DNA from: an uncultured bacterium
Lineage (GTDB): Bacteria > Zixibacteria > MSB-5A5 > JAABVY01 > JAHJOQ01
NCBI GenBank assembly: GCA_965369655.1
Contig: CBDUQR010000004.1
Span: 1 to 64,000 of the forward strand
DNA: 64,000 nt
Reading direction: 5' to 3'
A program made the translations under genes and the position numbers. This document shows positions 10,359 to 28,288 of this stretch, piece after piece (the first letter of the stretch is position 1; every line of letters starts with the position of its first letter). The notes beneath the pieces are model-generated. The model saw nothing but the letters and a program-made list of their open reading frames with translations, did no database searches and was not told the DNA's origin.

Positions 10359-10514
10359 GATTCACTCCTTTTCGAGATATATTCTCAATCCTCTTCTTAC
10401 GTTCTTCGATATCGATTCATCTTTGTGAGCCAGATCAGCGATAGCACGCTGGAAAGATAGCTGTTGTACAATCAGTGTCAAGCCTTTGGGGAGATTATAT
10501 TGTGCCCGGCAGAT

Positions 10515-10577
10515 CCTTCGAAGCTCAGGACTTGCCCTTCGAAGCTCAGGACTTGCCCTTCGAAGCTCAGGACCTGC
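10515..10577. repeat. 3x 21-bp tandem repeat CCTTCGAAGCTCAGGACTTGC
   Basis: Units at 10515, 10536 and 10557 (one mismatch), no spacers; member of a dispersed CCCTTCG..CTCAGGAC family. Confidence 0.95.
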
Positions 10578-10721
10578 GCGGGGACGTCTGCCGCCCATGG
10601 TATTCGAACAGAGTGGCGGAACCGCTAAAGGCAGAGTCCTGAGCATTGCGAAGGGGTTTCGTCCTACAGTTGACTCGCACCTCTTGTAAAATCGACCCAA
10701 ATGATGTAAATTTCATGCTTC

Positions 10722-10820: not shown

Positions 10821-12107
10821 ATGATGAAAGCGTCACTATACACATTGGGTTGCAGGCTGAATCAGGCTGAGACCGGAATAATCGCCAAAACTCTAGTCGA
10901 CGAGGGCTACGAGATCGTCGAGTGGGGTGAGCCTGTCGATCTCGCAGTAGTCAACACCTGCACCGTGACTGAGAAGGCCGACTCGAAATGCCGGAATGCG
11001 GTCAGGAAAGCGATTCGCACAAATCCTGACGCATTCGTAGCTGTCGTCGGATGCTACTCACAGATGGCTGCGAAACTCATAAGTGAAATCGACGGCGTCG
11101 ATCTCATTCTCGGCAACGCCGAGAAACTCAAGCTGGCCGACCATATCAATGGCCTGCGGAAGATCGACACGCCAAAAATCATCTGCTCGCGTTTGGTCGC
11201 TCGCGACGATTTCACCATCGAGTCCGAGAGCACTCATGATAACCACACCCGCGCGAATCTCAAGATTCAGGATGGCTGTGATTTCGTCTGTTCATACTGT
11301 ATCATACCGAGAGCGCGTGGACGATCGCGGAGCCGTCAGTTTTCCGACCTGATGCGTGAAGCACGGCAACTCGCCGACGATGGATTCAAAGAAATCGTAC
11401 TGACCGGAGTCAACATCGGAACATATCAAAGCGACGGCTACAATTTCCTCGACATGGTCACGGAACTCGAAAAGCTCGATGGAATAGAACGAATTCGTAT
11501 CAGTTCAATTGAACTGACGACCATCGAGCGAGAGCTTGTGCAGCACATGGCTGAATCCGTCAAGCTCTGCCGTCACCTGCACATTCCGCTACAGAGCGGA
11601 GACGACACGATCCTCGAAAACATGGCTCGTAAACACAAATCTCAGGAGTATGCCGATTTCGTCGAGTACTGTGTCGAGACAGTGCCGGAGATCGGGATCG
11701 GAGCCGACATTCTGGTCGGATTCCCCGGCGAGAGTGACGAGCAGTTCAGAAACACAAAGAAATTCCTCGCCGATCTGCCAATCGAGTATTTCCATGTTTT
11801 CGCATATTCCGATCGCGAGAACACACCCTCCTCGCGCATGCCGGGCAAGATCGACCCCGATACTAAAAAACTGCGCAGCCGAATAATGATAGAGATGGGC
11901 AAGCGTAAACGTTATGCATTCTGCGAGCGATATATCGGCAAGCCGGTCGATGTGCTGTTCGAGTCGATCGAGGATGGTCTCTGGACCGGATTCACCGACA
12001 ACTACATGCGAGTGCAGACACAGTGCGAAGAACATGTCAGAAATCAGATTCTGACTGTCGTGCCGGAGCGCATTGAGGGCAACACATTGATCGGGACGCT
12101 CACATGA
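10821..12107 (+). CDS. mtaB: tRNA t6A37 methylthiotransferase (radical SAM)
   Basis: TLGCRLNQAE, NTCTVT, KIQDGCDFVCSYCIIP; lacks the MiaB-specific YGCQMN. Confidence 0.88.
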   Translation: MMKASLYTLGCRLNQAETGIIAKTLVDEGYEIVEWGEPVDLAVVNTCTVTEKADSKCRNAVRKAIRTNPDAFVAVVGCYSQMAAKLISEIDGVDLILGNAEKLKLADHINGLRKIDTPKIICSRLVARDDFTIESESTHDNHTRANLKIQDGCDFVCSYCIIPRARGRSRSRQFSDLMREARQLADDGFKEIVLTGVNIGTYQSDGYNFLDMVTELEKLDGIERIRISSIELTTIERELVQHMAESVKLCRHLHIPLQSGDDTILENMARKHKSQEYADFVEYCVETVPEIGIGADILVGFPGESDEQFRNTKKFLADLPIEYFHVFAYSDRENTPSSRMPGKIDPDTKKLRSRIMIEMGKRKRYAFCERYIGKPVDVLFESIEDGLWTGFTDNYMRVQTQCEEHVRNQILTVVPERIEGNTLIGTLT

Positions 12108-13405
12108 AATCCGTATACATCGAGACATACGGCTGTCAGATGAATGAGTATGACAGCGAAATCGTGAGATCGATTCTCTGCGAGAACGACTTCGAGATGA
12201 CCGAAAACCCCGACACGGCATCGGTGATTCTTCTCAATACTTGCTCGGTCAGAGAGAATGCGCACAAGAAAGTCTTTCGCCGAATCGAGGCGCTGAAATA
12301 TCTCAAGAGACAAAACGATCACCTGATCCTGGGTGTGATTGGCTGTATGGCGCAGAGCCTGAAAGAAGAGCTTCTCGAAGATGGTATCGGAGTTGATCTC
12401 ATTGCCGGTCCCGATACATACAGGCGGCTGCCGAATCTCATAAGAGGCGTCGAGAGCACCGGACAGAAGGCAGCCGAGCTCAAGCTCTCCCGTACTGAGA
12501 CGTATGCCGATGTGTTCCCTACGCAGGATCAGGGTGCCAATGCCTGGATAGCGGTGATGCGGGGCTGCGACAACGTCTGTACTTTCTGTATCGTGCCGTA
12601 TACGCGGGGCCGGGAACGCAGCCGCGAACCGAAGGGTGTCATCGACGAGGCAAGACGGCTCGCCGATCAGGGATTCAGGCAGGTGACTCTGCTCGGTCAG
12701 AATGTCAACTCATACAAATATGACAACTGCGATTTCACCGACTTGATTAACCTGGTCAGCGAGATCGACGGCATCAGTAGGATCAGGTTCACCTCGCCGC
12801 ATCCGAAGGATTTCCCGACGAAACTGATTGAGGTTATCCGCGACAATCCCAAAGCCTGCAAGCATATTCACCTGCCGCTGCAAGCTGGGAACGACCGCAT
12901 ACTCGACATGATGAAACGCACTTATACAGGCGATGAGTTTATCAACCTTGCGGCCCTGATCCGCAGCGAAATCCCCGGTGTGGCGCTGACGACAGATATC
13001 ATCGTCGGCTTTCCGACTGAGACCGAAGATGAGTTTCAGGACACGCTTCGCATTGTCGACGAAGTCAGGTTCGATTCAGCGTTCATGTTCAAATACTCGG
13101 AGAGAAAAGACACCGTCGCACAGAGGAAGTATCCGGACGATGTGTCAAAGAATGATAAGACATCGAGGATCACGCGGCTGGTTGATATGCAGCGGCGGAT
13201 CTCGTTCGAGCGAAATCAGGCGCATCTTGACGCGATATTCGAGATTCTTGTCGAAGGCAGGGCGAAGAAACCGGATCAACTTTTCGGCAGAAACGATGGC
13301 AACAAGATCGTGGTCTTCCCCGACAATGGCGTCGAAGCGGGTGAGTTCCTGCGTGTAAGAATATACGAGGTGACTCCTAATACGCTAATCGGCAAAGTAA
13401 CTTAG
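12104..13405 (+). CDS. miaB: tRNA i6A37 methylthiotransferase
   Basis: TYGCQMNEYDS, NTCSVRENA, MRGCDNVCTFCIVPYTRGRERSR, LLGQNVNSY, TRAM tail. Confidence 0.95.
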   Translation: MKSVYIETYGCQMNEYDSEIVRSILCENDFEMTENPDTASVILLNTCSVRENAHKKVFRRIEALKYLKRQNDHLILGVIGCMAQSLKEELLEDGIGVDLIAGPDTYRRLPNLIRGVESTGQKAAELKLSRTETYADVFPTQDQGANAWIAVMRGCDNVCTFCIVPYTRGRERSREPKGVIDEARRLADQGFRQVTLLGQNVNSYKYDNCDFTDLINLVSEIDGISRIRFTSPHPKDFPTKLIEVIRDNPKACKHIHLPLQAGNDRILDMMKRTYTGDEFINLAALIRSEIPGVALTTDIIVGFPTETEDEFQDTLRIVDEVRFDSAFMFKYSERKDTVAQRKYPDDVSKNDKTSRITRLVDMQRRISFERNQAHLDAIFEILVEGRAKKPDQLFGRNDGNKIVVFPDNGVEAGEFLRVRIYEVTPNTLIGKVT

Positions 13406-13524: not shown

Positions 13525-13770
13525 AAGGACTACAAGTCCAACTGGAACATGGGGCAAGAAGGGCAAACCCCACTATCTTTTTTGTTGATTTTTTACTGGC
13601 GACCTGTTAAGTTCGAATTCAAATTTAAGCTGAAAGGCTGTGTAGAGAAAGGTTAGTACACAGGTTTCGGAGATAGAATAAGAAATGATAGACTGCGGGA
13701 GAAGTTATTCTCGGCGCGAGCCGGGAGATTTCTATTCTCTCGCCACACAATGAAAGAGGAGGTGTGGGTT

Positions 13771-15255
13771 TTGCAGAATGGATTCAGAACAGCTACGATC
13801 CTGTTGATGGTCCTGGTCTTCACTATTCCCGCGTTTGCCGTTGAAAACACTGGCAAGATCGGCTTTGGCGTACGTGGAGGCGGATTCATCAGCGGTGGTG
13901 AATGGAAACTCGGTCCAATGTTTGGTGCCGACCTGAAGTTCGGCATTCACAAAAATTGGTCGATTGGTCTGACCGGAATGTACGGCCCGACCAAGGGCGG
14001 CATGCTGGAGATGGACAACAATAACGTGCAGATGATTGTCTCAACTGATGAAGATGCCGACAAACTTCGCATTCGTCATCATGTTGTAGAGATGGCGGGC
14101 TGGTTCAATATCACGCCCGATGCTGAGAAACTGAACTTGTACCTCATGGCCGGCGCCGGTATCGATACATGGCACACTGAATATGACGGTGGCGACAAAG
14201 TCTATGTCTTCGATACGAGCGGAGTCGAGTCTTTCCGGTACAGAGATCAGCAATTGGCGCTGGTGATTGGCGGTGGACTCGAATACTTCCTGATTGAGGA
14301 ATTCTCGATCGGAGCAGGGCTACGCTATCACATATTGACCAATGCCCTGTCGCAGTTCAAGGACGAGAGAGATGTCGGCGATAATCTCGACAACCCGTCC
14401 GGACTTCTCGAAATCGGCGCTACTCTCACAGCCTATCTCGGCTCGTGCAAGGACAGCGACAAAGACGGCGTCTGCGATGAGGATGACAAGTGTCCCGAGA
14501 CGCCGAAAGGATGTATCGTTGATGAGGCCGGTTGCCCACTCGACGGTGACGGCGACGGTGTCTGCGACGGTCTCGACCAGTGCCCGGATACGCCACGCGG
14601 CTGCAAAGTCGACATGAACGGTTGCCTGATCGATTCGGACGGCGACGGCGTGTGTGACGGTATTGATAAGTGCCCCGACACTCCGACTATTGCGAAGGTC
14701 GACGCCGACGGCTGCCCGCTCGATACCGACAGAGACGGCGTACCAGATTACCGGGATAAGTGCCCCGACACGCCATACGGCTGCAAGGTCGATGAAAACG
14801 GTTGCGAGATCGATTCCGATGGCGACGGCGTTTGCGACGGTCTCGACAAGTGCCCCGGCACACCGGCAGGTCTGAAGGTGGACAAAGATGGCTGCCCGGT
14901 CGATTTCATCATCGAGAAGGAACAGGTCCTCGAACCCATCATATTCGCCGTTAACTCTGCCAAGCTGACCAAACAGTCCAGGAGCACTATCGATGCGATG
15001 ATCGAGAAGCTCAAGGCGATTTCGCACGTACGGATCGAGGTCCAGGGTCACACTGACGTCAGCGGCACGCACAAGTGGAACATGGAACTTTCACAGATGC
15101 GCGCGCAGTCTGTCGTTGACTATATGGTTGAGAAGGGAATTGATGTGTCGCGGTTGGTCCCAAAGGGTTACGGCCCAGACAAGCCCAAGTACGACAACAA
15201 GGTCGCCGAAGGGCGCAGAAACAACCGCCGTGTAGAAGTCATTCGTTTGAACTAA
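13771..15255 (+). CDS. OmpA-family outer membrane protein with thrombospondin type-3 Ca-binding repeats
   Basis: Signal peptide, beta-barrel, repeated DSDGDGVCDGLDKCPDTP, OmpA C-domain GHTD...LS..RA..V...NRRVE; TTG start after GAGGAGG. Confidence 0.92.
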   Translation: MQNGFRTATILLMVLVFTIPAFAVENTGKIGFGVRGGGFISGGEWKLGPMFGADLKFGIHKNWSIGLTGMYGPTKGGMLEMDNNNVQMIVSTDEDADKLRIRHHVVEMAGWFNITPDAEKLNLYLMAGAGIDTWHTEYDGGDKVYVFDTSGVESFRYRDQQLALVIGGGLEYFLIEEFSIGAGLRYHILTNALSQFKDERDVGDNLDNPSGLLEIGATLTAYLGSCKDSDKDGVCDEDDKCPETPKGCIVDEAGCPLDGDGDGVCDGLDQCPDTPRGCKVDMNGCLIDSDGDGVCDGIDKCPDTPTIAKVDADGCPLDTDRDGVPDYRDKCPDTPYGCKVDENGCEIDSDGDGVCDGLDKCPGTPAGLKVDKDGCPVDFIIEKEQVLEPIIFAVNSAKLTKQSRSTIDAMIEKLKAISHVRIEVQGHTDVSGTHKWNMELSQMRAQSVVDYMVEKGIDVSRLVPKGYGPDKPKYDNKVAEGRRNNRRVEVIRLN

Positions 15256-17942: not shown

Positions 17943-17971
17943 TTGCGTTCAGGGTTTGTGTCGCGTACTAT
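17943..17971 (+). promoter_or_regulatory. Putative sigma70 promoter giving a leaderless hit mRNA
   Basis: TTGCGT-N17-TACTAT, ATG 6 nt downstream, no SD. Confidence 0.45.
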
Positions 17972-17977
17972 TTCTTC

Positions 17978-18466
17978 ATGTCTAAGTCTGTATGGGCGCC
18001 ATGGAGAGAAGAATATATCCTCGGTTTCTCCAAAAAGAAAGTGGAGAAGGGATGCCTTTTCTGCAAGGCGATAAAGCAGAATCGTGACAGGGCGAACCTG
18101 ATCCTGTGTCGCAATGAAAGCACTTTCGTGATGATGAACCGCTACCCTTACACCTCGGGGCATCTGATGATTGTGCCGTACAGGCATGTCGGGACGCTTG
18201 AGAGGCTGAGCGACGAGATCGCGTGTGAACTCATGATGGAGACACGCAGGGCGGTGAAAATCCTGAAACAGGCTTTCAAACCTGACGGTTTGAATGTCGG
18301 GATCAATCTTGGCCGACCGGCGGGCGCCGGCGTTCCGGGGCATTTGCACGTACACATTGTTCCTCGGTGGACCGGGGACAACAGCTTCATGCCCGTCATA
18401 GGAGAGACGAGAGTCATTTCGGTTTCTCTCGAAACGACATTTAGGATTCTCAGTAAGCTTTTCTAA
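17978..18466 (+). CDS. HIT-family hydrolase (Ap4A phosphorylase-like)
   Basis: WAPWR, CLFC, N-YPY-SGHLM, GAG...HLHVHIVPRW. Confidence 0.92.
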   Translation: MSKSVWAPWREEYILGFSKKKVEKGCLFCKAIKQNRDRANLILCRNESTFVMMNRYPYTSGHLMIVPYRHVGTLERLSDEIACELMMETRRAVKILKQAFKPDGLNVGINLGRPAGAGVPGHLHVHIVPRWTGDNSFMPVIGETRVISVSLETTFRILSKLF

Positions 18467-18477
18467 AGGCTGCACCT

Positions 18478-20007
18478 ATGAAAATGCCGACAAAAGGTGA
18501 ACTCCTCCGACTCCAGGAGATGTATCACACCGACAAGCGCGTTGCCGAAGCTCTTGGCGGCAATGTCACTGAGCATCTTGTGCAGTACTGGCGGCGGAAA
18601 AAAGGCATACCGCGCAGGAAATTCCCCAAGTACTCAGAAGCGCAGATAAAGGAACTGTGGGAGCGTTACGGCGATGATTTCAGGTGCGGACGAGAGCTTG
18701 AACTCTCAAAGGCGGGATTCTACAGTTGGAGACGTCGCTACAATATAATGGACAAGCCGCATGCGTTAAGACTTGAACAGCTCGAACTGCGTTTTGGTGC
18801 GGAACCCAAACTTGGACGCGACGGAGTCTATGTCGAGTACTACAGGACCGTCGCCGAGAAAATCATGGCGAACTGTTCCGACAGCGATATTGTCGAGCGC
18901 AAACAGACTGTCGAACTGACGCCCGATCTGATACTGCTGGACCGACTGAGCGGAGAGGACCGACGCAAGCTGCGCATATCGAAATCGGTGGCCAATAGAG
19001 TCTGGCTTGCGACCGTTGATCGGGGCATCCTGTCGAACAGTCAACTGGATACTGGCAGGGTGCTGAACAATGTCTTCTCGCTTCTTCACCGCGAGGCTCT
19101 CTCGCCAAACATGCTGGTCGTGCGCAACAGTTGTTCAAGCGCTGGGTACTCGGCTTTCTCGACGCTTTCGATCGAGTTGAGGCAGGATCAACTGAACAAA
19201 CTTCTGAAACGTGGCAAGTTCGAGTACACAGTACCGCCCGTGCTCAGGATTACTCTTCAGGGAAGGCTCCAGCGCGGGGTCACGGCGTTTGACGTCTTCT
19301 GCTACGCCATATCAAATGTCTCCCAAAATGTTTTCGATGGCAGGATTGTCGAGTACGCAGGGAACGTGACCGAGAAGCTGAATATGTTCGAACGTTTCTC
19401 GCTGTGCCATCTTACTCCGGCCTCAGGCGCTGCCTGCGGGTACACTCTGTTCGATGAAACTACAAGAAAATACCTCGCCAGACGAGGCAGGTCCGACCAC
19501 AAAGCGCTTTTCTCTGACTCGAAAGCATTTTATGACCGCGACTATGTCCTGATGGTTTCAGGATTGGCCCCGCAGATCATGAAGTCGGATGAGTTGAGAT
19601 CGGGACAGCTTGTCAAGGATGCTGAGAATATCGGAGCAATCGATACGGTGTTCGTCGGGGGCCCCTGCGGGGGAGGGATCGAAGCGATGAAACAACTCGC
19701 CGATCTGCTCAAAGAACGCAGAGTACATTCATCGGTACGGATGTACATCTCCCCGCTGACTCAGGAGATTTACATCGAGGCGATCAAGAAACGCTACCTC
19801 GCTCCGATAGCGGAGGCGGGAGCGACAATTCTCCCGCCGGCTTCATCGCTGGAGGATATTCCAGGGTACACTCCGGGATCCGGGGCAGGCGTTCTCGCAA
19901 CACCTTATCGATACGATGACAGCCATTCGCAGGACTGCTGGTATGTGAGCCATTTCACGGCAGCCGAGAGTGCTGTACAAGGCAAACTAAGCTGCGTCGG
20001 ACGCTGA
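18478..20007 (+). CDS. Tandem HTH fused to a degenerate LeuC/aconitase large-subunit domain
   Basis: N-terminal repeats VQYWRRKKGI and FYSWRRRYNI; aconitase-like TVAEKIMA, GRLQRGVTAFD, VEYAG, FVGGPC; DSHT and CxxC motifs absent. Confidence 0.75.
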   Translation: MKMPTKGELLRLQEMYHTDKRVAEALGGNVTEHLVQYWRRKKGIPRRKFPKYSEAQIKELWERYGDDFRCGRELELSKAGFYSWRRRYNIMDKPHALRLEQLELRFGAEPKLGRDGVYVEYYRTVAEKIMANCSDSDIVERKQTVELTPDLILLDRLSGEDRRKLRISKSVANRVWLATVDRGILSNSQLDTGRVLNNVFSLLHREALSPNMLVVRNSCSSAGYSAFSTLSIELRQDQLNKLLKRGKFEYTVPPVLRITLQGRLQRGVTAFDVFCYAISNVSQNVFDGRIVEYAGNVTEKLNMFERFSLCHLTPASGAACGYTLFDETTRKYLARRGRSDHKALFSDSKAFYDRDYVLMVSGLAPQIMKSDELRSGQLVKDAENIGAIDTVFVGGPCGGGIEAMKQLADLLKERRVHSSVRMYISPLTQEIYIEAIKKRYLAPIAEAGATILPPASSLEDIPGYTPGSGAGVLATPYRYDDSHSQDCWYVSHFTAAESAVQGKLSCVGR

Positions 20008-20051
20008 GACGATGGATGCGTCTTCATCGCCTGTTTCGACATTCATTCAGG

Positions 20052-20080
20052 TTGACAAAGGGCAAGGCTCGGACTACATT
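20052..20080 (+). promoter_or_regulatory. Putative internal sigma70 promoter for leuD
   Basis: TTGACA-N17-TACATT. Confidence 0.55.
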
Positions 20081-20107
20081 CTGTCGAACTGATCGAAAGG
20101 ACTGCGA

Positions 20108-20605
20108 GTGGGCCTGATCAAAGGCAAGGTTTTCAAATACGGTGATGATATTAACACCGATGTGATCTTTCCGGGCAAGTATACGTACACGGTAACTGAA
20201 CCCGAGGATATGGCCAGCCACGCGATGGAGGATCTCGACCCCGGCTTTGTCGATGAAGTCGAAAATGGCGATGTTGTTGTCGGAGGCAAGAACTTCGGTT
20301 GTGGATCGTCACGCGAGCAGGCTGTGAAGTGCCTGAAATTCTCAGGCGTCGGAGCCGTTATTGCCAAGTCATTTTCGAGAATCTATTTTCGCAACCTGAT
20401 CAACAACGGCATTCCGGCAATTGTTAACGCCGAGCTTGTCGATGTGCTCGAAAAGGGCGATCGAATCGAGGTCAATCTGGAGAGCGGTATGGTCAGCACG
20501 CCAAAGGGTGAATTCAGTTTTCCGGCGTATGCTCCGGAAATACAGGAGATAATTGATTCCGGCGGACTCATCCCGTACACTCAGAAGAAACTCGGGATCG
20601 GGTAG
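20108..20605 (+). CDS. leuD: 3-isopropylmalate/homoaconitate dehydratase small subunit
   Basis: GDDINTDVIFPGKY, NFGCGSSREQA, SFSRIYFRN. Confidence 0.85.
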   Translation: MGLIKGKVFKYGDDINTDVIFPGKYTYTVTEPEDMASHAMEDLDPGFVDEVENGDVVVGGKNFGCGSSREQAVKCLKFSGVGAVIAKSFSRIYFRNLINNGIPAIVNAELVDVLEKGDRIEVNLESGMVSTPKGEFSFPAYAPEIQEIIDSGGLIPYTQKKLGIG

Positions 20606-20729: not shown

Positions 20730-21068
20730 ATGAAAGTCAACGCCTACGAAAAAGACGGAGTTTCAATAATCGAGGTCAAGGGTCGACTCATGGGTGGACC
20801 CGACACCGGTGAACTCGACGAAAAGCTCTATGCAATTATTGGCAAGGGAGACAAAAAGGCCATCGTTGATCTCGGCGGATGCGACTGGATCAATTCGTCC
20901 GGGCTTTCTATCCTGATCCATCATTACAAGAAATTCAAAGACGCCGGTGGCGAACTGAAGCTCGCCAACCTGACCAATAAGGTCGAGCGAATCATGGTGA
21001 TCGCGAGACTGACCGAGGTCTTCGACGCGCGCGATTCTGTCGAGGACGCTATCGCGGCGTTCGAGTAA
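20730..21068 (+). CDS. STAS-domain anti-sigma factor antagonist
   Basis: DLGGCDWINSSGL phospho-Ser motif; GGAGG RBS. Confidence 0.9.
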   Translation: MKVNAYEKDGVSIIEVKGRLMGGPDTGELDEKLYAIIGKGDKKAIVDLGGCDWINSSGLSILIHHYKKFKDAGGELKLANLTNKVERIMVIARLTEVFDARDSVEDAIAAFE

Positions 21069-24607: not shown

Positions 24608-27600
24608 ATGTCAGAAACCAGTGATTTTTTACCTCCAAAGATACCATATGAGTTGAAGAAGGCTCAGCAGGACGGGAAATTAGTTGTATTCGTGGGGGCT
24701 GGCGTTTCCATGCCTCCGCCATCCAGTCTGCCGGACTTCAATGATCTCGCTAAGAAGCTCAAAGACAAATTAGGACCATCTTTCAAAAAGCGAGCGCGCA
24801 GTGAGTCGATTGATCAATTCATTGGCCGAATGGTAGACGAGAATCACGACGTGCGGAAGTGGGTACGCGATATTTTCCTTAGTGAAAAATCAAAACCCAA
24901 CAAACAACACGCCAATTTGATCAAGCTCTTTACTCAACCCAAGGATGTCAAGATCGTAACCACGAATTTTGATTCACATCTCTCAACAGCAGCGAGAGCT
25001 AAATTTGAGGATAGCAACGATATTAACGAATACCTGGCTCCTGCCTTGCCTCTGGGACGAGAGTTTTCAGGCATCGTTTATCTGCACGGACGTGCCGACC
25101 GAGGTGCGAATGAATTGGTGCTGACAGATCGAGATTTTGGAAAAGCCTACTTGGCTGACGGCTGGGCGCGTCGATTCATGTTGGCTTTGTTCAGACATTA
25201 CCATGTGCTTTTTGTTGGTTATAGTCACGAAGATTCTGTTCTGAGATATCTTGCCAGGGGATTGTTCGACAAGACTCAGCGATTTGCTTTTGCCACGGAA
25301 GCTAAAGAAGATCATTGGAAAAGACTGGGCATAAAGATAATTAAATACGAACAAATCAAGAGAAAGAGAAAGTTCAAACTTGTCTGGGAAGCCATAAGCA
25401 GTTGGTCAAATCAGACACAATGGGGTCTACTGGATCACGAGAGAAGAATAACCAATATTGTGTCCATAGTGGAGACAACAGATCCTATTTTATCGCCACA
25501 TTCCAATCTTACTAAAGAAGATGCTCGGTATCTCATCGATGCCATCCAGCAAGAGCATCTGTTGCGTTTATTCTGCGACAAAGCAAAGCATACGTATTGG
25601 CTTGAATGGCTGGAGCAAAAGGAGAAGAACAAGGAGGCTGAGTATGACACCAATGAGCAAGCTTGGAAAGAGCGACTCGAATTCTCAAAACTATTTAGTC
25701 CGACTGCTGAAATCGGAGAGCGAGAGCGTGTCCTTGCATGGTGGTTTGCCAAAAGCTTTGTCGGCTGCGACGATCAACAAGGGTTGATATATCTAACACA
25801 ACGTGGCCAAACTGTCAATCCAGCATTATGGGACGAAATTGCAAGGGTATTGGCTCACGGTAAGAAGCTCCCGAAACCGGAAACCTATGCCAAGTGGCTG
25901 TCAGTTCTTATGAACACTGTGCCTCAGCATAAGCATGCGTTAGATCGAATCTTGACTAGTCGGAATTTGAACCAGAACTACTGGCGAGGCGTACTGAATC
26001 TGTTCCAGTTTCTGACTACTCCAAGATTGGAGCTGGAAGATGATTATATGGGTGAACTAATCAAAGGAGAGAAGAAAGTTAACGCGAATATATCAATGTT
26101 AGGTGATAAGTACTGCTTGGATGAGGCTTGGAAACGAATATTGAAACCACTGCTCCCGACACTGTCAAGCGAACTGGCGGTCACATTCACAGGCCACTTC
26201 TGGCGTGCGCATTCGTTGTTGGTCGCCGCTGGCAAGGCTGGTCCCATGTGGAATCCGGTTAGTTTCAGTCGCTCGGCTATCGAGCCGCATGAACAAGATA
26301 GCCAGATGTTCGGATTCGAGCTCATTATCGACTATGCAAGAGATGTAATCGAATTCATTATCGAGAATGACACAAGACAGGCTGATGCCCTCATACAAAT
26401 ATGGATATCTTCGAAAGTTCCTATACTCGCTCGTCTCGCTGTTCACGCCATGAGAAAGTCAATCCACGTTTCCTTCGACGACAAGCTACGCTGGGTACTT
26501 GAATGGGAGCTGATCTACAAGCATCTCACCAAACATGAGGTCTTCATGCTCTTAGAGCATGCTTTCCCCAAGGCAGGGCAAGACATGCAATTAGAGGTAA
26601 TCGAGCGCGCCAAGATCGGACCTCATCGCGATGAAGGTGAAGATACAGAACATGCGAAACTATATGAGTATGAGATATACTGTCTACTATATTGGCTTAA
26701 GAAGCATGCTCCGAAACTCCACTCTGCACAGCAAGCATTTGATGAGGTACAGAGTAGGAATAAAGAATTCTCACCACCTGATCATCCTGAATTCTATAAG
26801 TGGAGTTCGGGTGCTATTTTAATTGAAGGCTTCTCTCCGATTGATGCTGACGAACTCTTATTGAAACCTGCTGCAGAGCAGGTTGAATATTTGATGAACG
26901 GTGGATCTGAGTCCAGGCATATTTTCGAGAGAGAAGGTCTCATGGGGCAAGTTGGCATCGCGGCAAGAAAAAACCCGTCGTGGGGTTTAGACCTTGCAGA
27001 GGTGTTGAGGGATAGGACGGAATGGAAAGAAGATATTTGGAGCAGCATTCTTAATGCATGGCATAAACCACCTTTCAACAAAGAAGATTGGCCGCGAGCA
27101 CTAGGAATCCTCGGGGACGTAAACATTCTCTCTAATAACCGATACACGATAGGTTACATCCTCTGGCATGCGTCCGAAATGAAAAACATCTGGACTGAAG
27201 CGACTCTCCACGAAGCCGAGGCTATTACGGAGAGATTTTGGGATATTATCGGCAATGACGCACCAGAACGGACACCTGCTGACGACTGGCTGTTCGAGGC
27301 TATCAACCATCCGGCTGGTCAGCTTACTCTCTTCTGGCTGCACCTTATCGAAAGGCGCGCCGAACTCGCTGGACACGATCCTGACACAATACCCGACAAG
27401 TACAAAGAGCGTTTTGAAGCAATCATCTCAGGGACATCATACGCGAGTCAACTTGGCCGTGTAACCCTCGCCAGCCAGATCAGATATGCATTCAGCCTAG
27501 ATCGGCAATGGACAGTAGATAACCTGCTTCCGCTACTAGACTGGAATAAGGACGAACATCGTGCAGAGCAATGCTGGCACGGATTCATCGGCTGGGGAAC

Positions 27601-28288
27601 ACCGCCTTTCGAGTTACTGAAACACCTTAAGCCGCTGTATGAGCAAGCCACCGAGAAGTTTCCTCCTGAGGCTTCCAGACTACGTGAGCATCTAATGCAA
27701 CACTTGGCCTTCATGGCGCTTTCTCTTGAGAATCCGCTTCAGGACAAATGGTTGCTTCGAGTGAGAAGCCATATGATTCAGGAAGGCGATCTGCTAAAGT
27801 GGACTCACAGATTCAGATTCGTATTGATCGACATCCCTGACAACCAGAAGAAAGCAATATGGGATAGGTGGCTCTGTCAGTATTGGAAGGATCGTACAGA
27901 AGGTATATTCGGACGATTCGTTGAAGAGGAAGCCGCAGGAATGCTCAGTTGGGCACTCGAGCTTGGTCCTGTAATTGGAGAAGTTGTCAATGTTATTTGT
28001 AATTCTGATCCTGTAGATGTAGGTAGTACTTCTATTTACATCGAATTGGTCGAGAGTAGACTTGCAGAGAAGTACCCGGATCCCACAGCCGATCTTCTTC
28101 ATCATCTTGCCAAGGGGCACAAGCATCCTCTTCCTGCGCAGGAATCCTACATGTGCCACGAGATGTCGGAACTTGTGAAAGAGCTTCATAAGCACGGCGC
28201 GTCAATTGATAAGCTCAAAGCAATTTGCGAAGAACTCGCAAAACTTGGATGCACAGAAGCCCCTGATCCACATGATTCCCTAAAGTAG
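24608..28288 (+). CDS. SIR2-domain anti-phage protein, DSR1-like (SIR2_2 + DUF4020-like C-terminus)
   Basis: VFVGAGVS, IVTTNFD, VYLHG, LFVGYSHED; C-terminal WLCQYWKDRTEG; AT-richer than the flanks. Confidence 0.82.
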   Translation: MSETSDFLPPKIPYELKKAQQDGKLVVFVGAGVSMPPPSSLPDFNDLAKKLKDKLGPSFKKRARSESIDQFIGRMVDENHDVRKWVRDIFLSEKSKPNKQHANLIKLFTQPKDVKIVTTNFDSHLSTAARAKFEDSNDINEYLAPALPLGREFSGIVYLHGRADRGANELVLTDRDFGKAYLADGWARRFMLALFRHYHVLFVGYSHEDSVLRYLARGLFDKTQRFAFATEAKEDHWKRLGIKIIKYEQIKRKRKFKLVWEAISSWSNQTQWGLLDHERRITNIVSIVETTDPILSPHSNLTKEDARYLIDAIQQEHLLRLFCDKAKHTYWLEWLEQKEKNKEAEYDTNEQAWKERLEFSKLFSPTAEIGERERVLAWWFAKSFVGCDDQQGLIYLTQRGQTVNPALWDEIARVLAHGKKLPKPETYAKWLSVLMNTVPQHKHALDRILTSRNLNQNYWRGVLNLFQFLTTPRLELEDDYMGELIKGEKKVNANISMLGDKYCLDEAWKRILKPLLPTLSSELAVTFTGHFWRAHSLLVAAGKAGPMWNPVSFSRSAIEPHEQDSQMFGFELIIDYARDVIEFIIENDTRQADALIQIWISSKVPILARLAVHAMRKSIHVSFDDKLRWVLEWELIYKHLTKHEVFMLLEHAFPKAGQDMQLEVIERAKIGPHRDEGEDTEHAKLYEYEIYCLLYWLKKHAPKLHSAQQAFDEVQSRNKEFSPPDHPEFYKWSSGAILIEGFSPIDADELLLKPAAEQVEYLMNGGSESRHIFEREGLMGQVGIAARKNPSWGLDLAEVLRDRTEWKEDIWSSILNAWHKPPFNKEDWPRALGILGDVNILSNNRYTIGYILWHASEMKNIWTEATLHEAEAITERFWDIIGNDAPERTPADDWLFEAINHPAGQLTLFWLHLIERRAELAGHDPDTIPDKYKERFEAIISGTSYASQLGRVTLASQIRYAFSLDRQWTVDNLLPLLDWNKDEHRAEQCWHGFIGWGTPPFELLKHLKPLYEQATEKFPPEASRLREHLMQHLAFMALSLENPLQDKWLLRVRSHMIQEGDLLKWTHRFRFVLIDIPDNQKKAIWDRWLCQYWKDRTEGIFGRFVEEEAAGMLSWALELGPVIGEVVNVICNSDPVDVGSTSIYIELVESRLAEKYPDPTADLLHHLAKGHKHPLPAQESYMCHEMSELVKELHKHGASIDKLKAICEELAKLGCTEAPDPHDSLK

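Follow-up and report, generated by a model that had tools for sequence, protein, structure and literature searches.

The subject of this work is a gene in a 64,000-nucleotide stretch of DNA from an uncultured bacterium of the Zixibacteria lineage (assembly GCA_965369655.1, contig CBDUQR010000004.1, positions 1 to 64,000), the whole of which is referred to below as the window. The gene (18478..20007, +) encodes a fusion protein of 509 amino acids in which, as judged from the open reading frame (ORF) and from family and fold comparisons, two helix-turn-helix (HTH) modules and a motif of the type that binds the β sliding clamp are followed by a catalytically dead body of the LeuC/HacA kind. About an even chance is given to the reading in which this protein binds DNA as a clamp-tethered regulator, with an inert enzyme body as its scaffold, and acts as a core single-copy chromosome factor of Zixibacteria. 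A broader version is held a little more tentatively. According to it, a phylum-wide, clamp-riding regulator with two HTH modules would work with a histidine triad (HIT) enzyme of the diadenosine tetraphosphate (Ap4A) type and would once have been an active iron–sulfur (Fe-S) hydro-lyase linking metabolism to replication, with all stages of this history found in living lineages.

Loss of Enzyme Function in the LeuC/HacA Body

The body of the fusion protein (about residues 123–505; 18844..19992, +) had been called LeuC-like in a preliminary description of the window, and both fold and family matches agree with this. In Foldseek, its structure model, with a predicted local distance difference test (pLDDT) value of 88, matched MJ0499 with E 1e-30 and a template modeling (TM) score of 0.79–0.81 by target. 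The fold of Aconitase domains 1–3 was present in the structure model and in the Foldseek matches, and the Pfam Aconitase family matched the fusion protein with E 9e-28. The cut-offs of the curated hidden Markov models NF001614 (143 vs. 385 bits) and TIGR02086 (122 vs. 410 bits) were missed.

When the body was aligned with the intact large subunit of the same genome, the three Fe-S ligand positions were found to be occupied by Pro, Ser and Glu. The preliminary description had stated that only the first Fe-S cysteine, within GGPC, was kept; the cysteine is indeed present, but Cys397 lies one residue past the Pro and is not a ligand in register. The loss of DSHT was also correctly recognized there, whereas the residues aligned with it are SCSS and not NSCS. 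The DH, CHQ and NRNFxGR motifs are likewise gone from the body, and the residues still kept are structural ones of the Gly/Pro/Asp/Ala type only. The designation as a pseudoenzyme is therefore justified: neither a ligand nor a catalytic motif is left, and the dead body is kept under selection, with ratios of nonsynonymous to synonymous substitution rates (dN/dS) of 0.03–0.19.

Across the family, 85 columns were invariant in active enzymes, and 23 of them were kept in the dead forms, mostly as Gly, Pro, Asp, Ala and Glu. The dead bodies showed no invariant residue of the pocket that was new to them, and only R330 (84%) was partly specific. Since the fold is kept and the pocket is not, a scaffold is favored over a sensor, and from these sequence comparisons we infer that the dead body serves as a scaffold. 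The idea of an Fe-S switch like that of IRP1 found no support, as the dead forms conserve neither a ligand nor a residue of the pocket that could replace one. In the set of relatives gathered with the window's protein, which leans towards dead forms, 88 of the 129 full-length proteins lacked any ligand in register and 7 possessed all three; DSHT was kept in 1 of 134 members.

The HTH Head

The two HTH-like repeats that had been proposed for the N-terminus were recovered as two predicted three-helix modules with HTH-fold matches. Structure models and family conservation place module 1 at residues 6–41 (18493..18600, +) and module 2 at residues 54–87 (18637..18738, +). The head aligned with a mycobacteriophage repressor (Z 5.8, root-mean-square deviation (rmsd) 2.2, 43 aligned residues) and with the DNA-binding domain of GcrA (Z 5.5, rmsd 2.1, 43 aligned residues), both Z values being middling. 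None of the Pfam HTH models exceeded its cut-off on the fusion protein.

A profile of the head, searched against 1.84 billion representatives, gave 30 matches at E up to 1e-30. Among the matches that were scanned, the 6 long ones spanning the whole head in one stretch were aconitase-family fusions, and most of those matching in several stretches were multi-HTH proteins. Proteins with many HTH repeats (P0111, P0113, P0115, P0120 and similar) resembled the head with E down to 1e-33. The N-terminal profile found chance-level rows only among PDB sequences, and with the head Foldseek returned nothing at an E of 0.001 or below. A search of the ESM Atlas brought no usable match, a result that speaks neither for absence nor for novelty.

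Conservation was concentrated in the head, with a mean per column of 0.76–0.83 vs. 0.40–0.45 in the body, and the near-invariant recognition helices look sequence-specific. Among the weak fold neighbors of the head were Mos1, Tc3 and SETMAR with their bipartite HTH heads (E above 0.07). Transposases also carry clamp motifs, as described in a passage of PMC4549789; in view of these motifs and of the weak Mos1 and Tc3 rows, the head may have originated from a mobile element.

The Clamp-Type Motif

Natural clamp motifs take one of two forms, Q-phi-x-[L/M]-[F/L] and its hexameric counterpart Q-phi-x-[L/M]-x-[F/L], according to passages of PMC11139829, which also name QLxLxF as a highest-affinity form and LQLELDF as the top phage-display binder. 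Right behind the second HTH module, in a low-confidence linker (pLDDT below 50 for residues 99–104 in the full-length model), the window's protein carries QLELRF at residues 101–106 (18778..18795, +), which fits the hexameric consensus; QLELDF was present in 8 of 134 family members.

Relatives were aligned on the end of the second HTH module and not on the motif itself. This alignment comprised 266 proteins, of which 3 were unanchored and 245 distinct. Gln at 101 occurred in 243 of the 245, one exception being a mis-anchored row and the other shifted by two. Position 2 was Leu, Met or Ile in 243, position 4 Leu or Phe in 244 and position 6 Phe or Leu in 237, while position 5 was free. The strict hexamer was fitted by 179 of the 245 sequences, and by 236 when Phe was allowed at position 4; the background rate of the motif in LeuC bodies was 1.8e-4 per position.

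The DnaN protein of the same genome, encoded on G000:C3 in a dnaA-dnaN-recF operon, keeps the peptide-pocket residues. When DnaN was modeled in complex with residues 50–110 of the fusion protein, the score was 0.61 (runs of 0.61, 0.67 and 0.61), whereas the best of three controls scored 0.00. Of 157 solved pairs, 116 attained the mark applied to this score, as did 2 of 215 mismatched pairs; these figures are only rough with own-built alignments. The runs agreed in at least 69% of contacts, with a partner pLDDT of at least 76. In the models, Q101, L102, L104 and F106 contacted T170, G172, H173, L175, P241–V246, N320 and M363–R366, a site that coincides with the canonical clamp pocket as given in part of the review PMC11139829. 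The motif is thus predicted to dock in the peptide pocket of the β sliding clamp.

Several observations weigh against a clamp-tethered regulator. Many clamp–peptide complexes have already been solved, so the passing score of the DnaN model may reflect likeness to them. Among the 1574 long ORFs in this genome, 71 had a chance match to the loose form of the hexamer, and of the 84 fused proteins related to the intact form, only 43 showed the strict consensus. Phe occupied position 4 in 61 of 245 relatives; according to a passage of PMC11139829, Phe at this position weakens binding and is not found in natural ligands. AlphaFold places a helix over residues 95–102 or 95–107, and L97, K98 and L99, which lie outside the consensus, are as conserved as the motif. 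The genes dnaA, dnaN and recF were near the fusion gene in none of 81 loci and adjoined it in only 1 of 20 further loci. When 85 upstream regions were scanned for k-mers, only AT-rich words resembling promoters came up, and no operator.

Part of this evidence would suit an ordinary one-component transcription factor, an explanation that is considered possible at a fairly low probability. Residues 95–106 would then form a structural or dimerization helix and the body a ligand-sensing or dimerization domain. The helix predicted across the motif, the conserved L97/K98/L99 and the frequency of loose matches are in line with it, and fusions of enzyme and regulator are established for PutA and BirA, as stated in a portion of PMC6978683. 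On the other side, conservation tracks the clamp consensus position by position. Pro was tolerated at position 7 (97 of 245 relatives) and, in several, at position 5, which argues against a long helix. The difference between the DnaN model and its controls, together with the mostly structural nature of the kept enzyme columns and the lack of a new invariant pocket residue among those compared, also speaks against the ordinary one-component factor.

In two genomes with an intact enzyme, the operon lay near replication genes (L203:3393-9902 and L200:5355-11836). In G040, HIT, fusion and leuD directly follow dnaA-dnaN, and in G016 they come two genes after dnaX-ybaB-recR.

Distribution, Selection and the Series from Enzyme to Pseudoenzyme

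The distribution of the fusion, which the preliminary description had proposed to check, proved to be phylum-wide. Of 251 genomes of the Zixibacteria phylum, 239 carried a match to the head, as did 194 of the 198 high-quality ones; it occurred once in 236 genomes and twice in 3. The named homologues are Zixibacteria. Among the database labels of 80 loci, 43 were Zixibacteria or GN15 and 37 were other (27 Ignavibacteria-type, 7 "bacterium", 2 FCB and 1 Calditrichota); those otherwise-labeled loci that were placed in the tree nested among Zixibacteria-labeled ones. Several members, dead ones too, carry the source name isopropylmalate dehydratase.

Purifying selection was evident in both parts of the protein. 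For the head, dN/dS ranged from 0 to 0.08 in 21 close pairs; the range for the body given above comes from the 14 of these pairs with finite dS, the other 7 being saturated and left without a ratio. For the window's own pair, the values were 0.025 for the head and 0.091 for the body, both rough at a dS near 1.4. The explanation that a redundant leuC copy is decaying neutrally, with active-site residues drifting freely and dead forms on long branches, is accordingly assigned a negligible probability: the low ratios in both parts contradict it, no internal stops occurred in the listed head matches, full-length frames persist across families, and the head is retained in nearly all high-quality genomes.

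The NF001614 score of the fusion ran from about 590 down to 50 bits in 40 relatives, and intact relatives pass the LeuC/HacA family models. In 6 of 20 genomes read in detail, DH, DSHT, GSCTN, CGPC and NRNFxGR were intact and leuD lay downstream. When an intact member was used as the query, 84 of the best 120 matches were fused, and 66 of these 84 kept all six enzyme motifs; the closest unfused relatives had 413–435 amino acids. As some lineages keep a fully intact enzyme together with leuD, the protein is a decayed bifunctional protein.

All 48 fusions fell on one side of a branch with a Shimodaira–Hasegawa-like approximate likelihood ratio test (SH-aLRT) value of 99, the intact forms on short and the dead forms on long branches. 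This was a quick tree with a midpoint root only, which does not fix the number of catalysis losses. The leuD copies near half-decayed fusions were themselves degenerate (L057, L061, L062, L091, L096, L208). The GCGSSRE-type motif was altered in five such copies, and the leuD of L208 had 28% identity. A degenerate leuD beside a half-decayed fusion suggests co-decay of the ancestral pair.

The HIT Gene and the Start of the Operon

A HIT gene with the triad HLHVHIV (17978..18466, +) is the constant 5' neighbor of the fusion gene. In 81 of 81 loci, the window included, and in 20 of 20 further loci, it immediately precedes the fusion gene on the same strand; its stop overlaps the fusion start in 54 of the 81, and the histidine triad was seen in all of them. 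Of 101 genomes, 100 had one match to the gene. Among solved structures, its nearest relative is the mycobacterial Ap4A phosphorylase (PDB 3ano, E 5e-36), although with 155 against 290 bits the protein stays below the cut-off of NF052622.

A promoter-like site inferred from sequence, TTGCGT-17-TACTAT (17943..17971, +), ends 6 nt before the ATG of the window's HIT gene, which has no Shine-Dalgarno sequence. In a scan of HIT starts, in which an anchor was obtained in 92 of 101 cases and 85 non-redundant loci remained, TAnnnT occurred 5–8 nt before the in-frame ATG in 63 of the 85 vs. 3–12 at control offsets, and a Shine-Dalgarno sequence in just 7. Most of the deeper lineages lacked the pattern, and when TAnnnT was counted crudely across the genome, no excess was seen (100 of 1817 vs. 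86–105). Judging from these sequence patterns, transcripts of the HIT–fusion operon in this part of the phylum probably lack a leader. In several deeper lineages, three intact-enzyme ones among them, a Shine-Dalgarno sequence was observed at the operon.

A Rad50-like gene of about 700 amino acids, scoring below the cut-off, was present in 10 of 81 loci and lay upstream of HIT in 4 of 20 (L208, L211, L212, L215). The gene of about 370 amino acids that precedes it in these four loci resembles a metallophosphoesterase in its motif, with no family match.

These neighbors bear on another explanation, in which the protein is a clamp-tethered repair or replication accessory. Its head would bind DNA with little preference for sequence, and the dead body would bring the HIT enzyme to nicks in the wake of the fork, where adenylated by-products of ligation or Ap4A would be cleared; such a module would be a bacterial counterpart of the aprataxin principle. 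The constant position of HIT with its frequent stop–start overlap, the clamp motif with the DnaN model and the Rad50-like genes fit this explanation, and DNA ligases are able to make Ap4A, as a part of PMC7705103 states. It is nevertheless regarded as unlikely. The HIT protein is closest to an Ap4A phosphorylase, with no aprataxin among the 25 solved relatives listed, the recognition helices appear sequence-specific, and co-translation is no proof of a complex.

leuD and the Orphan LeuC

Downstream of the fusion gene lies an intact leuD (20108..20605, +) encoding a small subunit of the LeuD/HacB type with 165 amino acids. The near-consensus promoter that had been reported for it is present at 20052..20080 (+), where the sequence match TTGACA-17-TACATT agrees with the consensus in 10 of 12 positions. 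The fusion ORF and leuD are flanked, also as reported, by the HIT gene and by a STAS gene 3' of leuD (20730..21068, +).

The preliminary description had further proposed that LeuD is the partner of the fusion protein, and three results oppose this. Among 68 loci with at least 800 nt visible, leuD was directly downstream of the fusion in only 7, comprising the window's locus with three close relatives and 3 degenerate leuD copies. In five genomes that keep the fusion and are 98–100% complete (G006, G014, G017, G034 and G039), no stand-alone leuD was detected by the LeuD model, which matched there only inside full-length aconitases. Third, in a LeuD tree that left out divergent leuDs, the branching of the window's LeuD clade mirrors that of the orphan LeuC clade, and the clade stands apart from the leuDs of intact fusions.

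The orphan LeuC emerged from the suggested search for a canonical leuC elsewhere in the genome, which yielded one intact large subunit (G000:C25:27440-28690; L008:8441-9691). The window's leuD is the sole stand-alone small subunit of this genome. Genome G022 has HIT, the dead fusion, an intact leuC and a leuD of the window's LeuD clade, in this order. Most simply, leuC would have been relocated at a later time, and leuD, which has a promoter of its own, would have stayed next to the fusion. The window's leuD is probably the partner of the intact orphan LeuC and not a part of the core module.

The same genome, which is 99.5% complete, encodes a 372-amino-acid dehydrogenase of the Iso_dh family (L221:1486-2604). 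A search with the HMGL-like family for an isopropylmalate or homocitrate synthase gave one weak partial match, in a frame of 685 amino acids, and no full-length one. A role of the intact LeuC/LeuD pair in leucine synthesis therefore appears doubtful from the gene content.

The model of the preliminary description as a whole, a nucleic-acid sensor of the IRP1 kind pairing with the adjacent LeuD and switched by Fe-S or substrate, is considered very improbable. It draws on the adjacency of leuD here and in the three close relatives, on its being the genome's only stand-alone small subunit, and on the intact fusions, which own a leuD, so that the ancestor paired with LeuD. Against these points stand the scarcity and partial degeneration of downstream leuDs, the five near-complete genomes, the tracking of the window's leuD with the orphan LeuC and the lack of a Cys ligand in register in most full-length relatives.

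Proposed Mode of Action and Comparison with Known Systems

The clamp-tethered regulator can be outlined as follows. The ancestor would have been a bifunctional enzyme and regulator with its own LeuD, which could also have sensed or turned over a hydroxy-acid via its Fe-S site, like trigger enzymes of the PutA type. In the present form, the motif would draw the fusion protein to clamp-loaded, newly replicated DNA, and the two HTH modules would read a DNA site, timing transcription or chromosome events to fork passage. The dead body would act as an inert scaffold, for oligomerization or for docking of the co-translated HIT enzyme, and not as a sensor of Fe-S or substrate. The HIT enzyme would probably set local levels of Ap4A-type nucleotides, which is the weakest step. 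Raised levels of dinucleoside tetraphosphates (Ap4N) have been linked to uncoupled replication and division in bacteria, according to a passage of PMC7705103, and this link offers a plausible place for the HIT enzyme.

With the archaeal-type isomerase/homoaconitase large subunits MJ0499 (PDB 4kp1/4nqy) and MJ1003 (PDB 4kp2), the protein shares the fold of residues ~123–505. It differs from them in the missing Fe-S ligands and catalytic motifs, in the additional head of 110 residues with its double HTH and clamp-type motif and in having no obligatory small subunit.

A precedent for transcription is offered by phage MuC, an activator that uses the β clamp, as reported in part of PMC12867686. Like the Mor/MuC activators described there, the fusion is a DNA-binding protein with a clamp motif, here a predicted one, which suggests replication-coupled transcription. 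Unlike them, it is chromosomal, single-copy and phylum-wide, its hexameric motif stands behind a tandem HTH, and an enzyme fold is attached. The Pfam families that were listed, at E up to 1, for 55 members contained no Mor model, and the Mor-type fold row 1rr7 matched the head weakly (E 1.4).

PutA, BirA, AcnB and IRP1, as presented in sections of PMC6978683, likewise join an enzyme to a regulatory job on nucleic acids, which suits the intact ancestral fusion. The family differs from them in using a dedicated HTH pair and not an RNA switch of an apo-enzyme, in the loss of catalysis in most lineages and in the clamp motif; an active enzyme and a regulator in one chain, as in PutA or BirA, fails for the window's copy.

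The form of the motif and the predicted pocket are shared with Hda, Pol IV and clamp-binding transposases, as far as passages of PMC11139829 and PMC4549789 describe these. Unlike these proteins, the fusion has no AAA+, polymerase or DDE domain, so that the chemistry of regulatory DnaA inactivation (RIDA) or of transposition does not apply, and an Hda-like role by AAA+ chemistry was ruled out on this ground. No Hda was found in this genome, which has one DnaA-family gene. The upstream HIT shares triad type with the mycobacterial Ap4A phosphorylase, from which it differs by its subthreshold NF052622 score and its fixed place in front of the fusion gene.

The fusion is thus functionally neither a LeuC/HacA enzyme nor an IRP1-type switch. 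In its working it would resemble clamp-binding transcription factors or a trigger enzyme in decay, none of those compared here having this build. No description of the protein was found in the titles and abstract beginnings searched, which came for the most part from journals outside subscription.

If the clamp-tethered regulator is real, a host-encoded, phylum-wide factor of this kind would be a new coupling of gene control or chromosome upkeep to replication, as clamp-tethered transcription regulators have so far been shown for phages. The family provides a natural series from an intact Fe-S enzyme to a pseudoenzyme with a fixed regulatory head, and a HIT/Ap4A enzyme would be linked to the clamp in a testable way. 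The label isopropylmalate dehydratase on dead members would mislead metabolic reconstructions.

Other Features of the Window

Among the neighbors of the operon, rlmD-like and LpxH-like genes were frequent, each in 23 of 81 loci. STAS and maeB were considered as parts of the module and dropped, each being present in only 4 of 81 loci.

Further from the operon, a short ORF on the reverse strand (10362–10700, −) contains ELRRASP twice and a partial third copy, which hints at a 21-nt tandem repeat. Two tandem genes at 10821–13405 (+) are taken, by their motifs, to be radical-SAM methylthiotransferase-like genes of the MtaB/MiaB type; their stop and start overlap. The ORF at 13750–15255 (+) combines an outer-membrane β-barrel, thrombospondin type 3 repeats and an OmpA domain. 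The start of a long ORF at 24608–28288 (+; 1226 amino acids) looks SIR2-type by motif, and it may encode an anti-phage defense protein.

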